From: Patescibacteria group bacterium | Lineage (GTDB): Bacteria > Patescibacteriota > Patescibacteriia > UBA2591 > JAQWAS01 | Direction of reading: 5' to 3' | Assembly (NCBI GenBank): GCA_028707495.1 | Contig: JAQWAS010000006.1 | Coordinates: 664-64,663, forward strand | DNA: 64,000 nucleotides | In this document: positions 7,212 to 47,067 of the stretch, in pieces | How positions within the stretch are numbered: the stretch's first letter is position 1 | Layout of the letters: every line of letters starts with the position of its first letter | Translations under genes and position numbers: made by a program | The notes under the pieces: model-generated | What the model was told of the DNA's origin: nothing | What the model saw: only the letters and a program-made list of their open reading frames with translations | The model's database searches: none

Positions 7212-7288
7212 GGGCGCATAGCTCAGTTGGTTAGAGCACCACGCTTATAACGTGGGGGTCGATGGTTCGAGTCCATCTGCGCCCACCA
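7212..7288 (+). tRNA. tRNA-Ile with anticodon UAU, CCA encoded
   Basis: Manual cloverleaf: acceptor GGGCGCA/TGCGCCC, anticodon stem CCACG/CGTGG, loop CTTATAA giving anticodon TAT, T-loop TTCGAGT, 3' CCA. Confidence 0.8.
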
Positions 7289-32600: not shown

Positions 32601-34112
32601 TTAATTTTTTTTTGGGGTAAAAAGGTAATAATTGTGACAAGATGGACAGTCGCCGCCTATTTTTTCTTTCAATAAATAGTTATTTTTAATTAATTTAATA
32701 GTTGAATAATTGAATCTTCCCAAGATTCCATTTATTATTTTACTGTCGTCAAATATATTAGTTTCTAAGATAATAAGATTTAATTTTTGATCAACAATTT
32801 GATTATTGAAGTCATCTAATTTTTTAATATTTGATCTGTCGAGCTGAGAAAGCATAAAAATATCTATAGGGGTGCCTTTATTTGTTAATAAAGATAGTGT
32901 TGCGTTTTCACTGAAAATAGGTGCATTAACTTGATCTATTCTTTTTAAAGTTTCCAAATTAATATGTTTTAAATAATTTAAAAAAACATGACTATTTTTA
33001 TAAAGATTTACAGGAATGCAAATAAGATCAAAAATTAAAATAGTTGATATAATGACTACGAAAATATTTTTATAATTGCTATATGTTACAAATTTAATTG
33101 TATCGTCAATAAATAAAGATGCACAGATTGAGAGAAAAATTATTATTTCAATAAAATAATTAGTATTAGATCCAAGTCTAACTAACGTTATAAATGTTAA
33201 AAAAAGGGATATAATGGCATAGATAATTAACAAGTAGAAAGATTTTTTATTTTTAAATAAGTTAATAAACAAAAAAGTTCCTCCAAATAGATAAATTAAC
33301 AGGTCAATTAAGGCAGATTCGTGTATTCTAAATAAAACCATAGATAAATCCATAACAGAACCAGACGTTAAATATTTAAAAATGTGCAATGTAAATTGGT
33401 TTTGGGTAAGTAGATTTAAAACAACAATACCCGATAAAAGGGAAATAAAAAATATCGAGGTGAACTTAATTAGTTTTTTATATTCCTTGTTAATAAATAA
33501 ATATATTATAAAAGCGACCGGAGCGGATATAAATGAGTGTTTAGTAAAAAAAGCTAAAACAAAAAATATTATTGATAGATATAACCAGTTTGATTTTTGA
33601 TATCTCAATATGAGATAAAAACCTATTAAACTAAAAAGGACTGCCAGCGGATCAACCCTAACGAGTGATAACCAGACTAGAATAGTTTGCGATGAGTAAA
33701 TTAAAAGAGCGGCAACAAGGGATGTGGTTTTTTTATTCGATAAAATGAATGTAATTTTATAAGCCAAGAAAACTATTAAAATTGAAATAATAAAGGAAAA
33801 GGTTCTGCCAGCTAAAAAATTTACTCCGAAAATTTTGACGAGTAAAGATAAAATAAAGATATGAATCGGTGGATAGTTAGTAGGTACGAAGAGAGGATCA
33901 TCTAATTTGCCGTATATGGTTGTATCGAGATCAAAATTGGTAGCTTGATATAATTCTAAGCCTTCAGCATAGTCTAGCTGGTATGGATATAAAATTTGTT
34001 TTATAGATATAAAAACAAAAAAGCCAAAATTTATCAGTAAAATAAAAATAATTACATATTTTATTTTTTCTGCAATGGGTTGGTCTAAAAATTTTTTAAT
34101 AATTCTCTGCAT
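32601..34112 (-). CDS. Polytopic GT-C-type membrane glycosyltransferase (PMT/ArnT-like)
   Basis: 503 aa with more than 10 TM helices, overlapping a second such gene and adjacent to the polyprenyl-phosphate GT2. Confidence 0.55.
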   Translation of the reverse strand: MQRIIKKFLDQPIAEKIKYVIIFILLINFGFFVFISIKQILYPYQLDYAEGLELYQATNFDLDTTIYGKLDDPLFVPTNYPPIHIFILSLLVKIFGVNFLAGRTFSFIISILIVFLAYKITFILSNKKTTSLVAALLIYSSQTILVWLSLVRVDPLAVLFSLIGFYLILRYQKSNWLYLSIIFFVLAFFTKHSFISAPVAFIIYLFINKEYKKLIKFTSIFFISLLSGIVVLNLLTQNQFTLHIFKYLTSGSVMDLSMVLFRIHESALIDLLIYLFGGTFLFINLFKNKKSFYLLIIYAIISLFLTFITLVRLGSNTNYFIEIIIFLSICASLFIDDTIKFVTYSNYKNIFVVIISTILIFDLICIPVNLYKNSHVFLNYLKHINLETLKRIDQVNAPIFSENATLSLLTNKGTPIDIFMLSQLDRSNIKKLDDFNNQIVDQKLNLIILETNIFDDSKIINGILGRFNYSTIKLIKNNYLLKEKIGGDCPSCHNYYLFTPKKN

Positions 34113-35757
34113 TTTTTATTTTGTAGATTTTAACTTCTAAGTCTTCATAGGCAAGTATAAATTTAGCATTATTATTTAAAACCTTATCGAGCTCTATGTG
34201 ACGATTTTTTTCTAAAAAGATATAAGAAGAATTAAAATTGTTTTTTATAATTTCAGACAGATTGTAATCATTGATATCTAATTTTTTATTATTTTTAAAA
34301 TTTTTTTTATAGTCAGTATTAATAGGTGGATTGCCCCACACAAGATTTTCCCATTGCCAATATAGATTTTTATCATAGTTATACATAAATGTTGGGTCTA
34401 AACCAACTAAATAATTATTTTGATCGTTGTGATAAAAGAGGGCGGGAAATTCGTCCCAGCAACTGTGGAAGATGGTTGATTTTAAAGGGGTGTTGTCTTT
34501 AAGCCATTGGCTACTGTATTTAAATTTATTTAAGTCAAAACCATTGGTAATATTTTTTTGAGTATCGATAATAACTCTAACTAAGCCAAAATAAACAAAA
34601 AACCCCATGCCGATAATCAAATAAATAGTTATTATAGATAAAATAAAACGTTGTGGTCCTAAAAAGCTATGCTTAATTTTTTGTATGATCGATTTATAAT
34701 TGACGGTTGGCCAAAAATTATTTAAAGAGTAGCCAATGGCGAGAATAGTAAGGGGTACAAAATATTCTACATAGCGACCAGATTTTAGTGTTGCCAAACA
34801 AAAAATAATCGATAAAAATAACAAACTAAAAACTTTTTTAGATTTATTTCTTTGATTAGAGGACCAGATGAAAGAAAAAATCCATAGAATCATTATAATA
34901 ATTAGTACATAAAGTAATGATAAGCCATTATATGGATACCACTCCATACCGACTGAAATTTTATTGCCATAATTTAAAATACCTATTTTAAAAATTTGTT
35001 GCCAATAAAAATTTATATTTTGTGGAAAATATGGATTAATTATTATTCCCAAAATCGATCCGGATAAGGTTGATAGGATTAATTTAATTTTTTGTTTTGC
35101 AAATAAGTTTTTAAAAGTTTCTGATAAAAATTTATTATAATCTTTGTAATTTGCTGATAACGAGATTATAAGACAATATATAATAGTTATAAAAGGTAAA
35201 AGTATCCAGCCGCCATAACTCCAAACATAAATAAAAGATAAACATAAAAGACTCCATGGCCTATTTTTAAATAGACAATAAATACCTATAAACAAAATTA
35301 TCATTGATAGGGGTTGGGCTTTTGCTAAGCTCATGCGATATAACCAGGGAGAGGCAGTTAATAAAAGGCCAAGATATAACCAAGTTGGTTTTATTTTTAG
35401 TTTTTTTAGTAACCAATAAAAAGTCAAAACAGTTAAAGTTGATAAGATGATTACGGAAAATTTTATACCGATTAGTGGGTCAGGGAAGAGAGTAATAAAG
35501 GGGATTAAAATAATATGATAAAGTAAATGATGATCTACATATTTTTCACCCGTCACAACCGTATACTGTAACCATGGGAAATTTTTTATAATTCCCTGGT
35601 CTTTCATTAAAAGAGCCATTTTGGTGTGATAAAATGAATCGGGGTCGGTTAAAGTCGGTGAAATTTGAAAATAAGAAAAAATAGTTACACTAAAAAGTAT
35701 GACTAGTAGGATTGGCAATAACTTATTTTTATAAAAAATATTTTTAATTGAAAGCAT
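34096..35757 (-). CDS. Polytopic GT-C-type membrane glycosyltransferase (PMT/ArnT-like), second copy
   Basis: 553 aa with more than 10 TM helices; 17-nt overlap with the downstream gene suggests an operon. Confidence 0.55.
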   Translation of the reverse strand: MLSIKNIFYKNKLLPILLVILFSVTIFSYFQISPTLTDPDSFYHTKMALLMKDQGIIKNFPWLQYTVVTGEKYVDHHLLYHIILIPFITLFPDPLIGIKFSVIILSTLTVLTFYWLLKKLKIKPTWLYLGLLLTASPWLYRMSLAKAQPLSMIILFIGIYCLFKNRPWSLLCLSFIYVWSYGGWILLPFITIIYCLIISLSANYKDYNKFLSETFKNLFAKQKIKLILSTLSGSILGIIINPYFPQNINFYWQQIFKIGILNYGNKISVGMEWYPYNGLSLLYVLIIIMILWIFSFIWSSNQRNKSKKVFSLLFLSIIFCLATLKSGRYVEYFVPLTILAIGYSLNNFWPTVNYKSIIQKIKHSFLGPQRFILSIITIYLIIGMGFFVYFGLVRVIIDTQKNITNGFDLNKFKYSSQWLKDNTPLKSTIFHSCWDEFPALFYHNDQNNYLVGLDPTFMYNYDKNLYWQWENLVWGNPPINTDYKKNFKNNKKLDINDYNLSEIIKNNFNSSYIFLEKNRHIELDKVLNNNAKFILAYEDLEVKIYKIKNAENY

Positions 35758-42118: not shown

Positions 42119-42313
42119 ATTATTATAAATTATTTTTTATAAAATAGCAAGTGTGTAAAATTTAACAATAAATTAAAATGAATTTTTAAAAAATTTTATC
42201 CCCAGTTAATTCACACACTGTCCACCCTTAGGCATTTTGAAAATTTTTTATTTTGTGAGATAGTAGATGAATACATTAAATTATAAACAAAAATAAATTT
42301 TAATTTTAAAAAC
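42119..42313. promoter_or_regulatory. Candidate oriC / dnaA upstream region (AT-rich, with DnaA-box-like 9-mers)
   Basis: TTATCCCCA (42195-42203) has one mismatch to TTATCCACA, and tgtgtaaaa is a weaker site. Classic rpmF–dnaA context. Confidence 0.35.
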
Positions 42314-43684
42314 ATGACAAAAGAACAATTGTGGCAGGGGGTTTTAGGCGAACTCGAATTAAATTTAAGTAAAGCCAATTTTACAACCTGGTTTAAAAAT
42401 ACTTTTATTTTTTCTTGGGATGAAACTAAAGGAGAGATCGTGATCGCCGTGCCTAACGCGTTTACGCAGGCTTGGCTAGAAAAAAAATATCACAAAGATA
42501 TTAAAAAGGGTTTAACAAATGTTTCTAATCAAGACATTAAAAATGTAATTTATAAAATAGAGAATATTCGTCATTATAAAGAAATGAAAGAATTAGAAGG
42601 CCAGAAAATAGCGGAACCAACATTAATTGAGGATTCGGCTAGTAAAACTAGGTTGAATGCTTATGGTTTAAATCCTTATTATACTTTTGATAATTTTGTA
42701 GTTGGTAAAAATAATGAACTGGCTTATGCGGCTTGTAAGGCAGTAGCCGAAAAATCAGGCGAAAAATATAATCCATTATTTATTTATAGTGGCGTGGGTT
42801 TAGGTAAAACTCATTTATTACAAGCCATCGGTCATGCGATTTTAGAAAAAAACCCTAAAGCCAAAGTCCTTTATGTCAGTTGCGAAAAATTTACCAATGA
42901 TTATATTCGAGCCATTCACGACAAAACCATTGATAGCTTTAAAAAATATTATCGTACCGTGGATTTGCTGTTAGTCGATGATGTGCAGTTTATGGCCGGC
43001 AAAGAAGGCACTCAAGAAGAATTTTTTCACACCTTTAATGAATTACATCAAAAAAACAGACAAATTGTGATCACTTCAGATCGTTTACCTAAAACCATTC
43101 CGGCACTAGAAGAACGGTTAATTTCACGTTTTGAATGGGGATTAATTACTGATATTTCCAAACCAGATCTAGAAACTCGATTAGCAATTTTAAATTCAAA
43201 ATGTGAGGAGAAAAAATATAAACTCAGTGATGATATTTTAAAATTTTTAGCCTCAACTATTCAAACCAACGTTAGAGAATTGGAAGGGGCTTTAAATAAA
43301 GTCATTGCTTATCATAATCTTTACAATTTAGAACCAACCCTAGATTCAACTAAAAATATTTTGTCGAGTTTAAAAGCCAAGCCACAACGTGGTGCTTTAA
43401 CTCCTCGCCAGGTGATTAAAACCGTTTCTGATTTTTATGAAATTAAACCGAATGATTTATGTTCTAAAACACGTAAAAAGGAAGTGGCCATGCCAAGACA
43501 AATTGCAATGTATTTATTACGTGAAGAAGTGGGAACTTCTTATCCCAGTATTGGTCAAGAATTGGGCGGACGTGATCATACGACTGCCATTCATGCTTAT
43601 AATAAAATTAAGGAAGCTGTCGAAGAAGACGGTCGAGTTAAAGATGATATCGAAATGATAAAACAGAGACTTTATAATACTTAG
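42314..43684 (+). CDS. dnaA: Chromosomal replication initiator DnaA
   Basis: AAA+ Walker A (GVGLGKTHLL), Walker B (LLVDDVQF) and C-terminal DnaA-box-binding HTH, 456 aa. Confidence 0.9.
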   Translation: MTKEQLWQGVLGELELNLSKANFTTWFKNTFIFSWDETKGEIVIAVPNAFTQAWLEKKYHKDIKKGLTNVSNQDIKNVIYKIENIRHYKEMKELEGQKIAEPTLIEDSASKTRLNAYGLNPYYTFDNFVVGKNNELAYAACKAVAEKSGEKYNPLFIYSGVGLGKTHLLQAIGHAILEKNPKAKVLYVSCEKFTNDYIRAIHDKTIDSFKKYYRTVDLLLVDDVQFMAGKEGTQEEFFHTFNELHQKNRQIVITSDRLPKTIPALEERLISRFEWGLITDISKPDLETRLAILNSKCEEKKYKLSDDILKFLASTIQTNVRELEGALNKVIAYHNLYNLEPTLDSTKNILSSLKAKPQRGALTPRQVIKTVSDFYEIKPNDLCSKTRKKEVAMPRQIAMYLLREEVGTSYPSIGQELGGRDHTTAIHAYNKIKEAVEEDGRVKDDIEMIKQRLYNT

Positions 43685-43750
43685 GTCGTAGTTTTGAGAG
43701 ATTTATTAAAGAAAACCAAAGTTAAAATTCTAAAAGTATAAAAATAAAAA

Positions 43751-43780
43751 GCCCGTCTGCCGATTCGGCGGACGGGTTTT
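43751..43780 (+). terminator. Rho-independent terminator (gcccgtctgccgattcggcggacgggtttt)
   Basis: GC-rich stem followed by a T-tract after dnaA. Confidence 0.8.
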
Positions 43781-43871
43781 GGGATTGGGTTTAGATAAAT
43801 ATGTGTTTATGACTCAGTTTTCTAAATTAAACTTGTTCTAAAGCCAAAATTAGATTATAATAAAATCATCT

Positions 43872-44702
43872 ATGTATATCATTAAAGCTTCAGGCGAAAA
43901 AGAAAAATATCAGCCTCAAAAAATTGTGAGGACAATTTTACGTGCTGGTGCAAATAAAAATTTAGCTCGAGAAGTTATCCAAAAAATAGAACCTTTTGTG
44001 TATGAAGGTATGTCGACTAAAGAAATTTTAAAATTAGTGCGTAAATTTTTAAGCCAAAAAGAAAAAACGGTTGCAGCCAAGTATAATTTAAAAAAAGCGA
44101 TTATGCAACTTGGCCCCACTGGTTTTAATTTTGAAAAATTAGTTGAAAGAATTTTACAAAAAGAAGGTTATCAAACCTCGACGCCACTTGTCACACAGGG
44201 AAGATGCGCTCAACACGAAATAGATGTGATAGCTAAAAAAGAAAATTCAATTTATGATATTGAATGTAAATATCGCAATGCGCGTGGAATTTATGTTGGA
44301 TTACAAACAGCCTTATATGTTTGGGCACGTCATCAAGATTTGGTGGGGGGCTCTCAAAATAAAAAATGTCCTAAATTTACTCAACCTTGGTTATGGTGCA
44401 ATACGCGTTTTTCTAGTCAGGTTATTCAATATGGCGGTTGTGCTAAAATGAAGTTAACTGGTTGGGATTATCCAGCAAAAGAAAGTTTGCGTGATTTGTT
44501 AGAAAAAAACAAATTTTATCCCATTACGGTTTTAACTTCTTTATCACAAAAAGATAAGGCAAATTTATTTAAAAATAATATAATTTTAATTCAAGATTTG
44601 TTAAACCAAGATTTAAAAAAAATTCAAGTAAAAACAAAAATTGATTTAAATAAATTAAAAAATTGGATTGATCAATCTAAAAAAATATTAAATTTAAAAT
44701 AA
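43872..44702 (+). CDS. ATP-cone domain fused to a PD-(D/E)XK (Mrr/restriction-endonuclease-like) nuclease domain
   Basis: N-terminal YIIKASGEKEKYQPQKIVRTIL (ATP-cone-like). The central EIDVIA...YDIECKY matches the D-(x)n-E-x-K catalytic motif. Confidence 0.55.
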   Translation: MYIIKASGEKEKYQPQKIVRTILRAGANKNLAREVIQKIEPFVYEGMSTKEILKLVRKFLSQKEKTVAAKYNLKKAIMQLGPTGFNFEKLVERILQKEGYQTSTPLVTQGRCAQHEIDVIAKKENSIYDIECKYRNARGIYVGLQTALYVWARHQDLVGGSQNKKCPKFTQPWLWCNTRFSSQVIQYGGCAKMKLTGWDYPAKESLRDLLEKNKFYPITVLTSLSQKDKANLFKNNIILIQDLLNQDLKKIQVKTKIDLNKLKNWIDQSKKILNLK

Positions 44703-44720: not shown

Positions 44721-46397
44721 ATGCCAACCCAAAATTTTTTTAAGGACGAAAGCCGAAAGAAAAATCAACAATTACACGAAAAACTAGGAGATATTAAAAT
44801 AAAAGAAAAAGAACGTGTAGTTCAAACGCAAGCAGTTATTTTAGGTATAAATTATATTAATTTAGTTGGTTTTGCTATTTCCGATGAAGCTTTAAGAATT
44901 CTCCCAAAAGATAAAGCCGAAACATTAAAAACTATTTGTTTTTTATTAGAAAATAAAGAATTGCGTTTGGCTACGGTTGATTCGACTAATGTGGCTGTTC
45001 AAGATTTGGCCCAAGAATTAAGTCGACAAGGTTATCATGTTGAAATTTATTTAACTTCGCAACATTCTTTCGACAAGGCTTTACAGTTATATGAGCGTTT
45101 GCCTAAAATTAAAGAAGTCACCGTGGGGGTAAAAATTAGCCAAAATGATTTTGAGTTATATAAGAATAAAATTAAAAAATTAAGTGATGTACAGGCTGAA
45201 ATTCAGGATGCTGACATTTCTAAAATTGTAACCGTAATTATTGCTGCCGCGGTCCAAGCTGAGGCCTCAGATATTCACGTTGAAGCTGAAGAAAAAGATA
45301 TTAAATTGCGTTATCGTATTGATGGTGTTTTACAAGATGTTGCAATTTTAGATAAAGAATTGTGGAAAAATTTAAATTCTAGAATTAAATTATTAGCCAA
45401 ACTGAAAATTAATATTATCGACCAACCTCAAGACGGTCGGTTTAGTATTTTTTTGCACGATCAGAAAATTGACGTCAGAGTTTCATGTTTGCCAACTAAT
45501 TTTGGTGAAAGCGTGGTGATGCGTTTATTGACGGGGACAGCCACTAGTGTAGAATTTGAAAGCTTAGGATTAATTGGTCAAGCCTTTGAACAATTATCAC
45601 AGGAAATTAAAAGACCCAACGGGATGATTTTAACCACTGGGCCAACTGGTTCGGGTAAAACAACAACCCTATACGCTATTTTGAAAAAAATTAAAAATTC
45701 ACAAACTAAAATTATTACTTTAGAAAATCCAATCGAATATCAGCTAGATGGTATTAGTCAAAGTAATGTAGATATAGATAAGGGTTACGGATTTGCTGAT
45801 GGTTTAAAATCAATTTTACGTCAAGATCCAGATGTGATTATGGTCGGAGAAATCAGAGATTATGACACGGTTGATACGGCTATTAACGCAGCCCTAACCG
45901 GCCATTTGGTTTTATCGACTTTGCACACTAATAGTGCTGCAGCAACTATTCCGCGTTTTTTATCGATGGGAGCTAAGCCATTTTTGTTGGCCCCATCTTT
46001 AAATGTTATCATTGCGCAACGTTTAGTTAGGCGAGTATGTGAAAAATGTAAACAAGAAATCCAACTATCAGAAGCTGATTTAGAAAAAATTAAAAAAATT
46101 TTACAATCCATACCAGAAGCTATGCGCCAGGGAATTGATTTAGAAAATTTAAAGTTTTATCATGGTCAAGGTTGTGAAAGTTGCCAAGGAATCGGTTATA
46201 AGGGTCGAATTGGTATTTATGAAGTTTTGACTATGAATGAAGAAATCGAAAAAATGGTTTTGAACGAAAAAGTATCAGAATATGATATTTTAAACATTGC
46301 ACAACAAAACGGTATGGTGACGATGGTGCAAGACGGCTTATTAAAAGCTTTACAGGGTGTTACTTCAGTAGAAGAAGTTTTCCGAGTAGCTGAATAA
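44721..46397 (+). CDS. GspE/PilB-family secretion/pilus assembly ATPase
   Basis: Walker A GPTGSGKTTTLYA, Asp box, Walker B and His box; C-terminal tetracysteine (CEKC...CESC), 558 aa. Confidence 0.85.
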   Translation: MPTQNFFKDESRKKNQQLHEKLGDIKIKEKERVVQTQAVILGINYINLVGFAISDEALRILPKDKAETLKTICFLLENKELRLATVDSTNVAVQDLAQELSRQGYHVEIYLTSQHSFDKALQLYERLPKIKEVTVGVKISQNDFELYKNKIKKLSDVQAEIQDADISKIVTVIIAAAVQAEASDIHVEAEEKDIKLRYRIDGVLQDVAILDKELWKNLNSRIKLLAKLKINIIDQPQDGRFSIFLHDQKIDVRVSCLPTNFGESVVMRLLTGTATSVEFESLGLIGQAFEQLSQEIKRPNGMILTTGPTGSGKTTTLYAILKKIKNSQTKIITLENPIEYQLDGISQSNVDIDKGYGFADGLKSILRQDPDVIMVGEIRDYDTVDTAINAALTGHLVLSTLHTNSAAATIPRFLSMGAKPFLLAPSLNVIIAQRLVRRVCEKCKQEIQLSEADLEKIKKILQSIPEAMRQGIDLENLKFYHGQGCESCQGIGYKGRIGIYEVLTMNEEIEKMVLNEKVSEYDILNIAQQNGMVTMVQDGLLKALQGVTSVEEVFRVAE

Positions 46398-46417: not shown

Positions 46418-46888
46418 CTAATGGAATAACTTAGTGATCCCTTTTAAGATCCGTGAAAATAAGTTTACACGTTTGATTGGAATAACTGGTTGATGGTTGA
46501 TTACGGCTTGTTCCTTCATTATTTCTTGTTTAACTTTTTTGTCTAACCATTCAAGACAAATGAAGATATTGTAAATAGGTAAGCCGTGAAGCTGTGATGG
46601 GTGTTTATTTTCGAGAATTTTGTAAAATTCGAGATTAGACCATTCTTTTTTATACTTTTCTACCCACGAGTTAACAGCCCGTCGAACATACAGAAGATCT
46701 TTCGGGTCTTTGGCTTGCCGTATTCTAGTTTGAATTTCTTGAGATCCTTGGAATAGAAATTGCCAAAGGGTTTCTCTGCCAAAGACTATCCAAATGTTGG
46801 CTAATCTAGCCATGGCTAAATCGAGAATTTTTGCCGACGATTCGTCTATATTAATCGTGCATAGAAATTCCGAATGAGAATCTGTCAT
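46418..46888 (-). CDS. Hypothetical 156 aa protein behind a long GC-rich structured leader
   Basis: Start set at MTDSH, preceded by GGGGGAAT + 4 nt + ATG. Promoter P5 lies about 180 nt upstream. Confidence 0.5.
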   Translation of the reverse strand: MTDSHSEFLCTINIDESSAKILDLAMARLANIWIVFGRETLWQFLFQGSQEIQTRIRQAKDPKDLLYVRRAVNSWVEKYKKEWSNLEFYKILENKHPSQLHGLPIYNIFICLEWLDKKVKQEIMKEQAVINHQPVIPIKRVNLFSRILKGITKLFH

Positions 46889-47067
46889 TTTATTCCCCCT
46901 TAGTAAAATGTGCAAAAAATTTTCCCTGCATGGGCCTGCACTCAAGAGAATTTTTGTTAGGAGAAGTCGAGGTATAAACCCAGAGGAACCCTGACAAAAA
47001 CCCCCATGCTTGTCGTGAGTGCAGACTTATACAGGGAAAATGAAATTAATTTATTAACTTACTTTAT

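Follow-up and report, generated by a model that had tools for sequence, protein, structure and literature searches.

A three-domain protein from a Patescibacteria bacterium as a candidate adenine-nucleotide-gated nuclease

What would a nuclease do with an ATP-cone, a nucleotide-sensing domain that, to our knowledge, has so far been understood only as an allosteric switch of ribonucleotide reductases (RNRs) and of the repressor NrdR? The question is raised by a gene at positions 43872..44702 on the forward strand of contig JAQWAS010000006.1 of a Patescibacteria group bacterium, numbered here within the 64,000-nucleotide stretch of DNA that was analysed (the window). The gene is a complete open reading frame (ORF) that is initiated by ATG and encodes 276 amino acids followed by a stop codon; its N-terminus, MYIIKASGEK, is flush with the homolog N-termini in our alignment, so the start codon is correct. 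The product is 100% identical to P0001, which NCBI lists as 'MAG: ATP cone domain-containing protein [Patescibacteria group bacterium]'. As judged from its sequence, it is a single chain of three domains, namely an ATP-cone, a PD-(D/E)XK nuclease of the AF1548 type that is predicted to be metal-dependent, and a helix-hairpin-helix, (HhH)2-like, nucleic-acid-binding domain. Within this three-domain explanation of the family, we favour on balance a nuclease that is gated by adenine nucleotides and would serve the regulated turnover or salvage of nucleic acids. A preliminary description of the locus had proposed the fusion of an ATP-cone to a nuclease with a D...ExK motif, which is borne out by Pfam, by alignment with AF1548, and by conservation; both of its domains were right, but the third, the C-terminal AF1548-like_C domain, had been missed. 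The window gene belongs to a family that is catalogued but experimentally uncharacterised and, as an ordinary member, adds nothing beyond membership.

The ATP-cone occupies residues 1-78 (43872..44105, + strand), with a beta-hairpin followed by a helical bundle, and is identified by Pfam, the structure model, Foldseek, and a profile. Pfam assigns PF03477 to residues 1-71 (E=1.1e-8, 35.9 bits against a cutoff of 25.8). The model has strands at residues 2-4 and 10-12 and helices at 15-24, 29-42, 49-63, and 65-78, with a predicted local distance difference test score (pLDDT) above 90, and Foldseek aligns this region to the cones of RNR and NrdR structures (5im3, 7agj, 3hnf, 7p37, and 9fxk). The NrdA cone of Aquifex (7agj) and the NrdD cone of P. 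copri (8p23) can both be aligned with a profile built from this N-terminal domain (A2), in the register IIKASGEKEKF..K against VIKRSGRKEKLDINK. No zinc ribbon or helix-turn-helix (HTH) domain was matched in the Pfam scan; the protein begins directly with the cone.

The residues expected to contact the nucleotide can be compared with those of E. coli NrdR, in which Lys53, Glu59, and Lys65 cap the adenine, the adenine rests over Val51, Phe61, Leu66, and Ile108, and Ser54 comes after Lys53 (bioRxiv 10.1101/2025.03.28.645925). In the alignment, K5, K17, and Y13 of the window protein (the last is Phe in most members) correspond to Lys53, Lys65, and Phe61, and I3 and I18 also stand at equivalents of adenine-pocket positions. 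The 'KR' of classical cones is 'KA' or 'KS' in this family, but E. coli NrdR itself has Lys53-Ser54, so that an Ala or Ser where classical cones have Arg does not argue against a cone. In an alignment of 267 homologs, these positions are nearly invariant: K5 is found in 245/251 sequences, G8 in 240/252, an aromatic residue (F/Y13) in 249/252, K17 in 244/252 with seven further Arg, T/S49 in 249/252, and Y/F71 in 258/258.

The cone is followed by an invariant linker and the PD-(D/E)XK nuclease core (residues 79-202; 44106..44477, + strand), which were recognised by phmmer, Foldseek, and Pfam. The best anchor is AF1548 of A. fulgidus (PDB 1Y88), which phmmer matches over residues 89-273 with E=2e-35; after applying an offset for a 13-residue tag, D118, E131, and K133 of the window protein align with D38, E51, and K53 of AF1548, for which a catalytic role was predicted on the basis of the structure and of metagenomic homologs (PMC1821046). 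The motif EIDVIA...YDIECKY contains E116, D118, E131, and K133: the codons of E116-I117-D118 (44217..44225, + strand) form the 'D' element, with E116 and D118 present in 265/265 homologs, and those of E131-C132-K133 (44262..44270, + strand) form the 'ExK' element, with E131 and K133 present in 266/266. E88 (codon 44133..44135, + strand), an acidic position on the first nuclease helix, is found in 264/265 homologs. R153, D156, and N177 are conserved to about 100% alongside these five residues, and the linker G81-P82-x-G84-x-x-F87-E88 is invariant, which suggests that the sensor may be rigidly coupled to the enzyme. Judged by this conservation, both the putative adenine-nucleotide contacts of the cone and the predicted catalytic residues are clearly under strong purifying selection.

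In Pfam, the nuclease core matches Mrr_cat (PF04471; residues 84-135) with 22.1 bits against a cutoff of 21, a marginal score. Other members of the clan score near Mrr_cat (UPF0102/YraN 23.2, DUF234 21.6, and Hjc 19.5 bits) and NERD also matches, so the Mrr_cat match reflects likeness at the level of the clan. The Hjc match (PF01870, E=9e-4) lies below its cutoff of 21.1 bits, and the Mrr_N winged-helix domain was not matched in the Pfam scan of the protein. The preliminary label 'Mrr-like' suits at most the catalytic core and not the whole protein, which lacks the Mrr N-terminal domain and whose proper family is AF1548-like.

As a separate observation on the nuclease domain, C112, H115, C132, and C190 (codons 44205-44207, 44214-44216, 44265-44267, and 44439-44441) are 86-95% conserved among the 267 homologs. 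AF1548 carries Gln at position 115, and C132 lies between the catalytic E131 and K133. Together, these four residues may make up a site for metal binding or redox chemistry that faces away from the active site.

The C-terminal domain (residues 203-276; 44478..44699, + strand) is (HhH)2-like and was recognised by PF22357 and by a profile built from this domain (A3). PF22357 (AF1548-like_C) matches residues 216-273 of the window protein with 24.6 bits against a cutoff of 23.9, and it was found in 21/21 family members scanned, with a best E-value of 2.9e-15. The A3 profile matches E. coli NusA AR2, which has an (HhH)2 fold (E=8.6e-5), and weakly matches the N-terminal domains of RAD51B and DMC1; the C-terminal domains of individual members gave weak Pfam matches to RAD51D_N, HHH_5, and IMS_HHH_1. 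An AlphaFold2 single-chain model, built from a 33-sequence alignment (A1), has a mean pLDDT of 94.9 and a predicted template modelling score of 0.89, with an alpha/beta nuclease core at about residues 83-200 and a C-terminal domain of five helices. When the model was compared with the PDB by Foldseek, 1Y88 came first (E=5e-17; template modelling score, TM, 0.87 normalised to the target), followed by Cdn1 (9u49), VC1899 (1xmx), Card1 (6xl1), and Can2 (7bdv) at E=2e-4 to 6e-3; after these CARF-fused effectors came many RNR and NrdR ATP-cones, and FANCM-FAAP24 at low probability.

The protein can be compared with several known systems. AF1548 shares with it the D/E/K triad, the C-terminal domain, and the motifs FTQPW, LTGW-YP, and YPIT, but has no ATP-cone; it is a structural-genomics entry whose nuclease role is itself a prediction (PMC1821046). 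With the cones of RNRs (NrdA, NrdD, and NrdJ) and NrdR it has in common the fold, the Pfam family, the hairpin Lys, the helix-1 Lys, the aromatic residue, and the Thr, and by analogy a similar logic is expected, in which the binding of an adenine nucleotide would change oligomerisation. The output domains differ, being a nuclease here, a reductase in RNRs, and a zinc-ribbon DNA binder in NrdR. Card1, Can2, Cdn1, and VC1899 of type III CRISPR systems likewise join an N-terminal small-molecule sensor to a C-terminal PD-(D/E)XK nuclease in one chain, and such CARF-fused effectors are the nearest solved nuclease folds after AF1548. They sense cyclic oligoadenylate through CARF, whereas the present protein has an ATP-cone, presumably for a housekeeping nucleotide, and an extra (HhH)2 domain. 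Card1, Can2, and Cdn1 cut both DNA and RNA. With Mrr type IV restriction endonucleases, the comparison comes down to the marginal, clan-level Mrr_cat score of the catalytic core; Mrr_N and a defence context are both missing here. XPF, Mus81, and Hef have an analogous order, a nuclease of the restriction-endonuclease fold followed by a C-terminal (HhH)2 domain; this likeness is architectural, as their ERCC4 sequence signature was not detected in the window protein.

The family is widespread and chromosomal. A word-indexed search returned 1066 homologs, whose source names include 'restriction endonuclease', 'ATPase', and 'Holliday junction resolvase' (the last from JGI). With the nuclease and C-terminal module as the query, an exhaustive search of a representative library clustered at 50% identity gave 860 clusters at E<=1e-3 and 616 at 1e-10. 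Among the best 150 of these 860 representatives, about 133 are 263-322 amino acids long with the module starting at residue 79-109 and are therefore taken to be fused to a cone, and about 16 are cone-less or truncated. Another sensor fused to the same nuclease module was considered and rejected, as the best 150 representatives are either cone-fused or cone-less. In the 267-sequence alignment, the cone is present in 250/266 homologs (about 94%).

A single peptide pattern placed the family in at least 595 species-level genomes. The archaea among the matches listed are Altiarchaeota, Hadarchaeota, Iainarchaeota, Aenigmatarchaeota, Micrarchaeota, Methanoperedens, Thermofilaceae, and Nitrososphaerota, and the bacteria listed include many Patescibacteria lineages, very many Bacteroidota, Chlorobiota, and Thermoanaerobaculia. 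The family also reaches Chlamydiota, on a Criblamydia plasmid. In a rough neighbour-joining (NJ) tree of 88 members, the window protein falls in a mixed clade in which sequences from the candidate phyla radiation (CPR), DPANN archaea, and other archaea are interleaved. This branching pattern suggests that genes may have been transferred between the domains, as has been reported for RuBisCO in these organisms.

What the nuclease might act for is best approached through its neighbours in other genomes. We clustered the four neighbours on either side of the gene at 83 loci and confirmed their identities with Pfam and NCBIfam. P-type ATPases lie near the gene at 18 loci from several phyla, including three CPR lineages and Chlorobiota. 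A beta-CASP metallo-beta-lactamase (MBL) hydrolase of 458 amino acids is also present at 18/83 loci, always at position +1 or +2, and tandem universal stress protein (Usp) genes lie upstream at 16/83. An archaeal-type protein of the thymidine/AMP-phosphorylase family occurs at 9/83 loci (NF003338, 688 bits; against TIGR03327 AMP_phos it scores 489, with a cutoff of 535), and a PRK07199 ribose-phosphate diphosphokinase at 7/83. D-2-hydroxyacid dehydrogenase (9 loci), AAA_28 (6), and ArsR (5) also recur.

Four of these genes form a cassette. On annotated plasmids, the order is the ATP-cone nuclease, the beta-CASP MBL hydrolase, the thymidine-phosphorylase-family protein, and the ribose-phosphate pyrophosphokinase. 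The cassette is carried by plasmids of Pontibacter actiniarum (Bacteroidota) and Criblamydia sequanensis (Chlamydiota), with coding sequences that overlap or abut in Criblamydia, and is flanked on the plasmids by genes for a 2-hydroxyacid dehydrogenase, a P-type ATPase, phosphoketolase, glycogen phosphorylase, acetate kinase, and glucoamylase. Among 90 loci searched by tblastn, the beta-CASP gene lies downstream in 21 and the full cassette is present within the fetched DNA in 11 (L089, 1972-6597; L090, 7001-11608; and L023, L031, L049, L053, L058, L059, L074, L076, and L079), often with tandem Usp and 2-hydroxyacid dehydrogenase genes ahead of it. The last three genes of the cassette, as a triplet for MBL, phosphoribosyl pyrophosphate (PRPP) synthetase, and phosphorylase (bll3115-3117), are microoxia-induced in Bradyrhizobium diazoefficiens (PMC6515984). 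The cassette is the sole cross-phylum association of operon grade that we found, and through it the nuclease is connected with the catabolism of nucleotides and pentoses during energy stress.

According to the reading that we favour, the ATP-cone would bind ATP and/or dATP, and this binding would change the oligomeric state of the protein and thereby switch the nuclease on or off, by analogy with RNR and NrdR, in which ATP/dATP binding drives oligomer switching. Relatives of this nuclease function as dimers. Binding of duplex nucleic acid, irrespective of its sequence, would fall to the (HhH)2 domain. More tentatively, the breakdown of nucleic acid, either DNA or RNA, might be tied to energy or nucleotide status, and its products might feed nucleotide salvage or pentose catabolism; a salvage role is proposed because the gene in Bacteroidota and Chlamydiota heads an operon with beta-CASP, phosphorylase-family, and PRPP-synthetase-family genes. 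The preliminary description had offered, among other options, a regulator that ties ATP or dNTP status to cleavage, and of its proposals this one reads best, with the predicted contact and catalytic residues conserved to at least 95-100%. CPR and DPANN organisms cannot make nucleotides and live on salvaged ones, and they keep the gene solo. Nucleoside pathways with AMP phosphorylase and RuBisCO are widely carried by CPR and DPANN (PMC5113843, PMC6389311).

A nuclease hard-wired to an ATP-cone would extend cone regulation to nucleic-acid degradation and would parallel the CARF- and SAVED-gated immune nucleases, except that the signal would be a housekeeping metabolite. Even the tiny CPR and DPANN genomes have kept the family, which thus offers a concrete candidate, open to testing, for a regulated nuclease in nucleotide scavenging or in dormancy metabolism. 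A bolder scheme, which we regard as possible but doubtful, would make the ATP-cone a gauge of energy charge or dATP that licenses digestion, either of the cell's own rRNA or DNA in hypoxia or starvation or, in CPR, of DNA imported by type IV pili; the products would pass through the beta-CASP exonuclease and a nucleoside monophosphate (NMP)/nucleoside phosphorylase into the ribose-phosphate pathway. If this is true, no earlier nuclease would have been under the control of an ATP-cone, and the protein would supply the entry enzyme that is missing from nucleotide scavenging in CPR and DPANN.

Several observations weigh against a gated nuclease in turnover or salvage. In the NJ tree, the cassette-linked members all lie in a clade of Bacteroidota (plus Criblamydia), apart from the window protein; because the latter belongs to a separate CPR/archaeal clade, the inference from the cassette reaches the window gene indirectly. 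We scanned the 135 nearest neighbours at 38 CPR, archaeal, and other loci and matched 162 Pfam families, but none recurred at more than 3 of these 38 loci, the top families being MnmA, P-type ATPase, and FKBP. A conserved partner in the CPR and archaeal loci was consequently rejected, each of the 162 families being present at three loci or fewer. No salvage gene was seen among the 10 large window ORFs that were scanned. Sixteen homologs, AF1548 included, have no cone, so the nuclease may be able to work cone-free. In the literature searched, we found no functional study of the fusion family or AF1548, of an ATP-cone joined to a nuclease or restriction endonuclease, or of the cassette.

Three other explanations of the same architecture have to be weighed, of which a structure-specific nuclease of DNA repair or recombination comes closest in its evidence. 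Such an enzyme would be Hjc-like or XPF/Mus81-like, and its ATP-cone would make activity depend on the dNTP/ATP pool, so that the cleavage of junctions or flaps, for instance, would follow replication status. The weak Hjc match and the 'Holliday junction resolvase' names from JGI are consistent with it, yet the Hjc score of the window protein stays under the family cutoff. The combination of a nuclease with (HhH)2 parallels XPF and Mus81, and Foldseek returned FANCM-FAAP24, again at low probability. The window gene lies between dnaA and ruvB, but this proximity is lineage-specific; genes for IMS (a Y-family polymerase) and an MGMT-like protein are found near a few CPR copies, but repair genes recur in at most 2-3 of the 38 non-Bacteroidota loci. 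Moreover, the sole tight cross-phylum operon holds nucleotide-catabolic enzymes and not repair genes, and we consider a repair role unlikely. A catalytically silent, nucleotide-responsive DNA-binding regulator like NrdR, in which the nuclease fold and (HhH)2 would serve for binding only, seems very improbable. An ATP-cone joined to a DNA-binding module would follow the logic of NrdR, and (HhH)2 domains of the NusA AR2 type can also make protein-protein contacts; however, the near-complete conservation of E88, E116, D118, E131, and K133 is unexpected for an inactivated nuclease, and the zinc ribbon and HTH are both absent from the Pfam scan.

The remaining possibility, by analogy with known immune nucleases, is a single-gene anti-phage or anti-plasmid effector, type IV-like or acting by abortive infection, that would be fired when infection perturbs ATP or dATP. 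Mrr_cat is above its cutoff, and both the fold and the PADLOC profiles resemble the nuclease domains of Card1, Can2, and Cdn1. A solitary nuclease without a methyltransferase and a patchy distribution over both domains of life would suit such an effector, and the mixed CPR/archaeal clade suggests horizontal transfer. PADLOC, however, returned weak matches to the nuclease part of CARF_PDDEXK models only (best E=6e-4, residues 57-165), a likeness of the nuclease core. The neighbours are housekeeping or metabolic genes; neither a methyltransferase nor a known defence family was found among the recurrent ones, and the loci examined showed no association with CRISPR. Relatives were absent from 2.9 M IMG/VR contigs and from 50,697 GenBank phage records, and only 2 of 72,556 plasmids carried one. 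Searching BFVD gave single-domain structural matches only, with a query-normalised TM of at most 0.37. The flanking synteny is stable among genomes whose family proteins are just 46-57% identical, unlike a defence island. We therefore rejected a restriction-modification or defence system and, separately, an origin in phages or plasmids; the defence factor entertained in the preliminary description loses its footing with the same evidence, and we hold a lone antiviral effector to be quite unlikely, behind repair in plausibility.

The gene stands directly downstream of dnaA (42314..43684, + strand; identified by translation and by Bac_DnaA Pfam domains in a syntenic homolog), as the preliminary description had said, but the weight that was placed there on this adjacency does not survive a comparison of genomes. 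An upstream dnaA together with a downstream PilB was found at 1/80 independent species-level loci (L027, Parcubacteria CG2_30_36_38) and in the close clade L001-3. A homolog with 46% identity, P0010, lies in the same array of SMC, RNase III, NusB, L32, dnaA, the nuclease gene, and T2SSE/PilB, while in Sphingobacteriaceae, Roizmanbacteria, Nanoarchaeota, and Paceibacterota the neighbours of the nuclease gene are unrelated. Between the two genes, RNA folding revealed a 15-bp GC-rich hairpin followed by UUUU (43748..43780, + strand; -26.3 kcal/mol, z=-4.75, equalled by 0/200 shuffles). This is probably the dnaA terminator, so that dnaA transcription would not run on into the nuclease gene. A simple terminator scan missed the hairpin because of its short tail of four T; the counts of the simple terminator and promoter scans were not above those of shuffled sequence. 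An A-run also flanks the hairpin, so that the terminator could act in both directions.

Signs of a replication origin were not seen around these genes. There was no cluster of DnaA boxes near dnaA or the nuclease gene, with single one-mismatch boxes at 42196 and 43975, and no inversion of GC skew near dnaA, the skew being positive on either side though gene orientation switches at 42119-42313. A functional link to dnaA or oriC was rejected in view of the one-clade synteny, the intervening terminator hairpin, and the lack of a box cluster or skew inversion. The dnaA adjacency is inherited local synteny of one Parcubacteria clade and has no functional meaning. We also observed that dnaN does not come after dnaA (42119-43871).

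No Rfam element was found upstream of the nuclease gene. A sub-threshold match to AsdA, an antisense RNA of dnaA mRNA, lies at 42785-42865 on the reverse strand (29.1 bits against a gathering score of 52); being inside the dnaA coding region, it probably reflects conservation of the coding sequence. A riboswitch or structured RNA upstream was accordingly rejected, this being the single match. A perfect TATAAT at 43856-43861, 10 nt 5' of the ATG, was spotted by eye only.

On the other side, a gene for a PilB/GspE-type type IV pilus ATPase (44721..46397, + strand) begins 18 bp downstream and matches NCBIfam type_IV_pilB with E=1e-150, under the equivalog cutoff. The nuclease-pilB pair is 2 bp apart in L001 (6867-6870) and is present in L027 too, and the two genes probably form one operon, in this lineage only. 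One may speculate that this local pairing is compatible with the processing of imported DNA.

Elsewhere in CPR, a sub-clade has the gene between MnmA and a small MGMT-like ORF (PF01035, DNA_binding_1), as in L008 (4838-7591), L063 (4879-7084), and L006 (10056-10343). MnmA neighbours the gene in five loci (L008, L024, L035, L063, and L070). At E<=1e-5, Pfam matched neither of two sizeable reverse-strand ORFs of the window, at 34096-35757 (553 aa) and 46418-46945 (175 aa). The window also contains a tRNA-Ile with the anticodon UAU at 7212-7288, an uncommon bacterial way of reading AUA.

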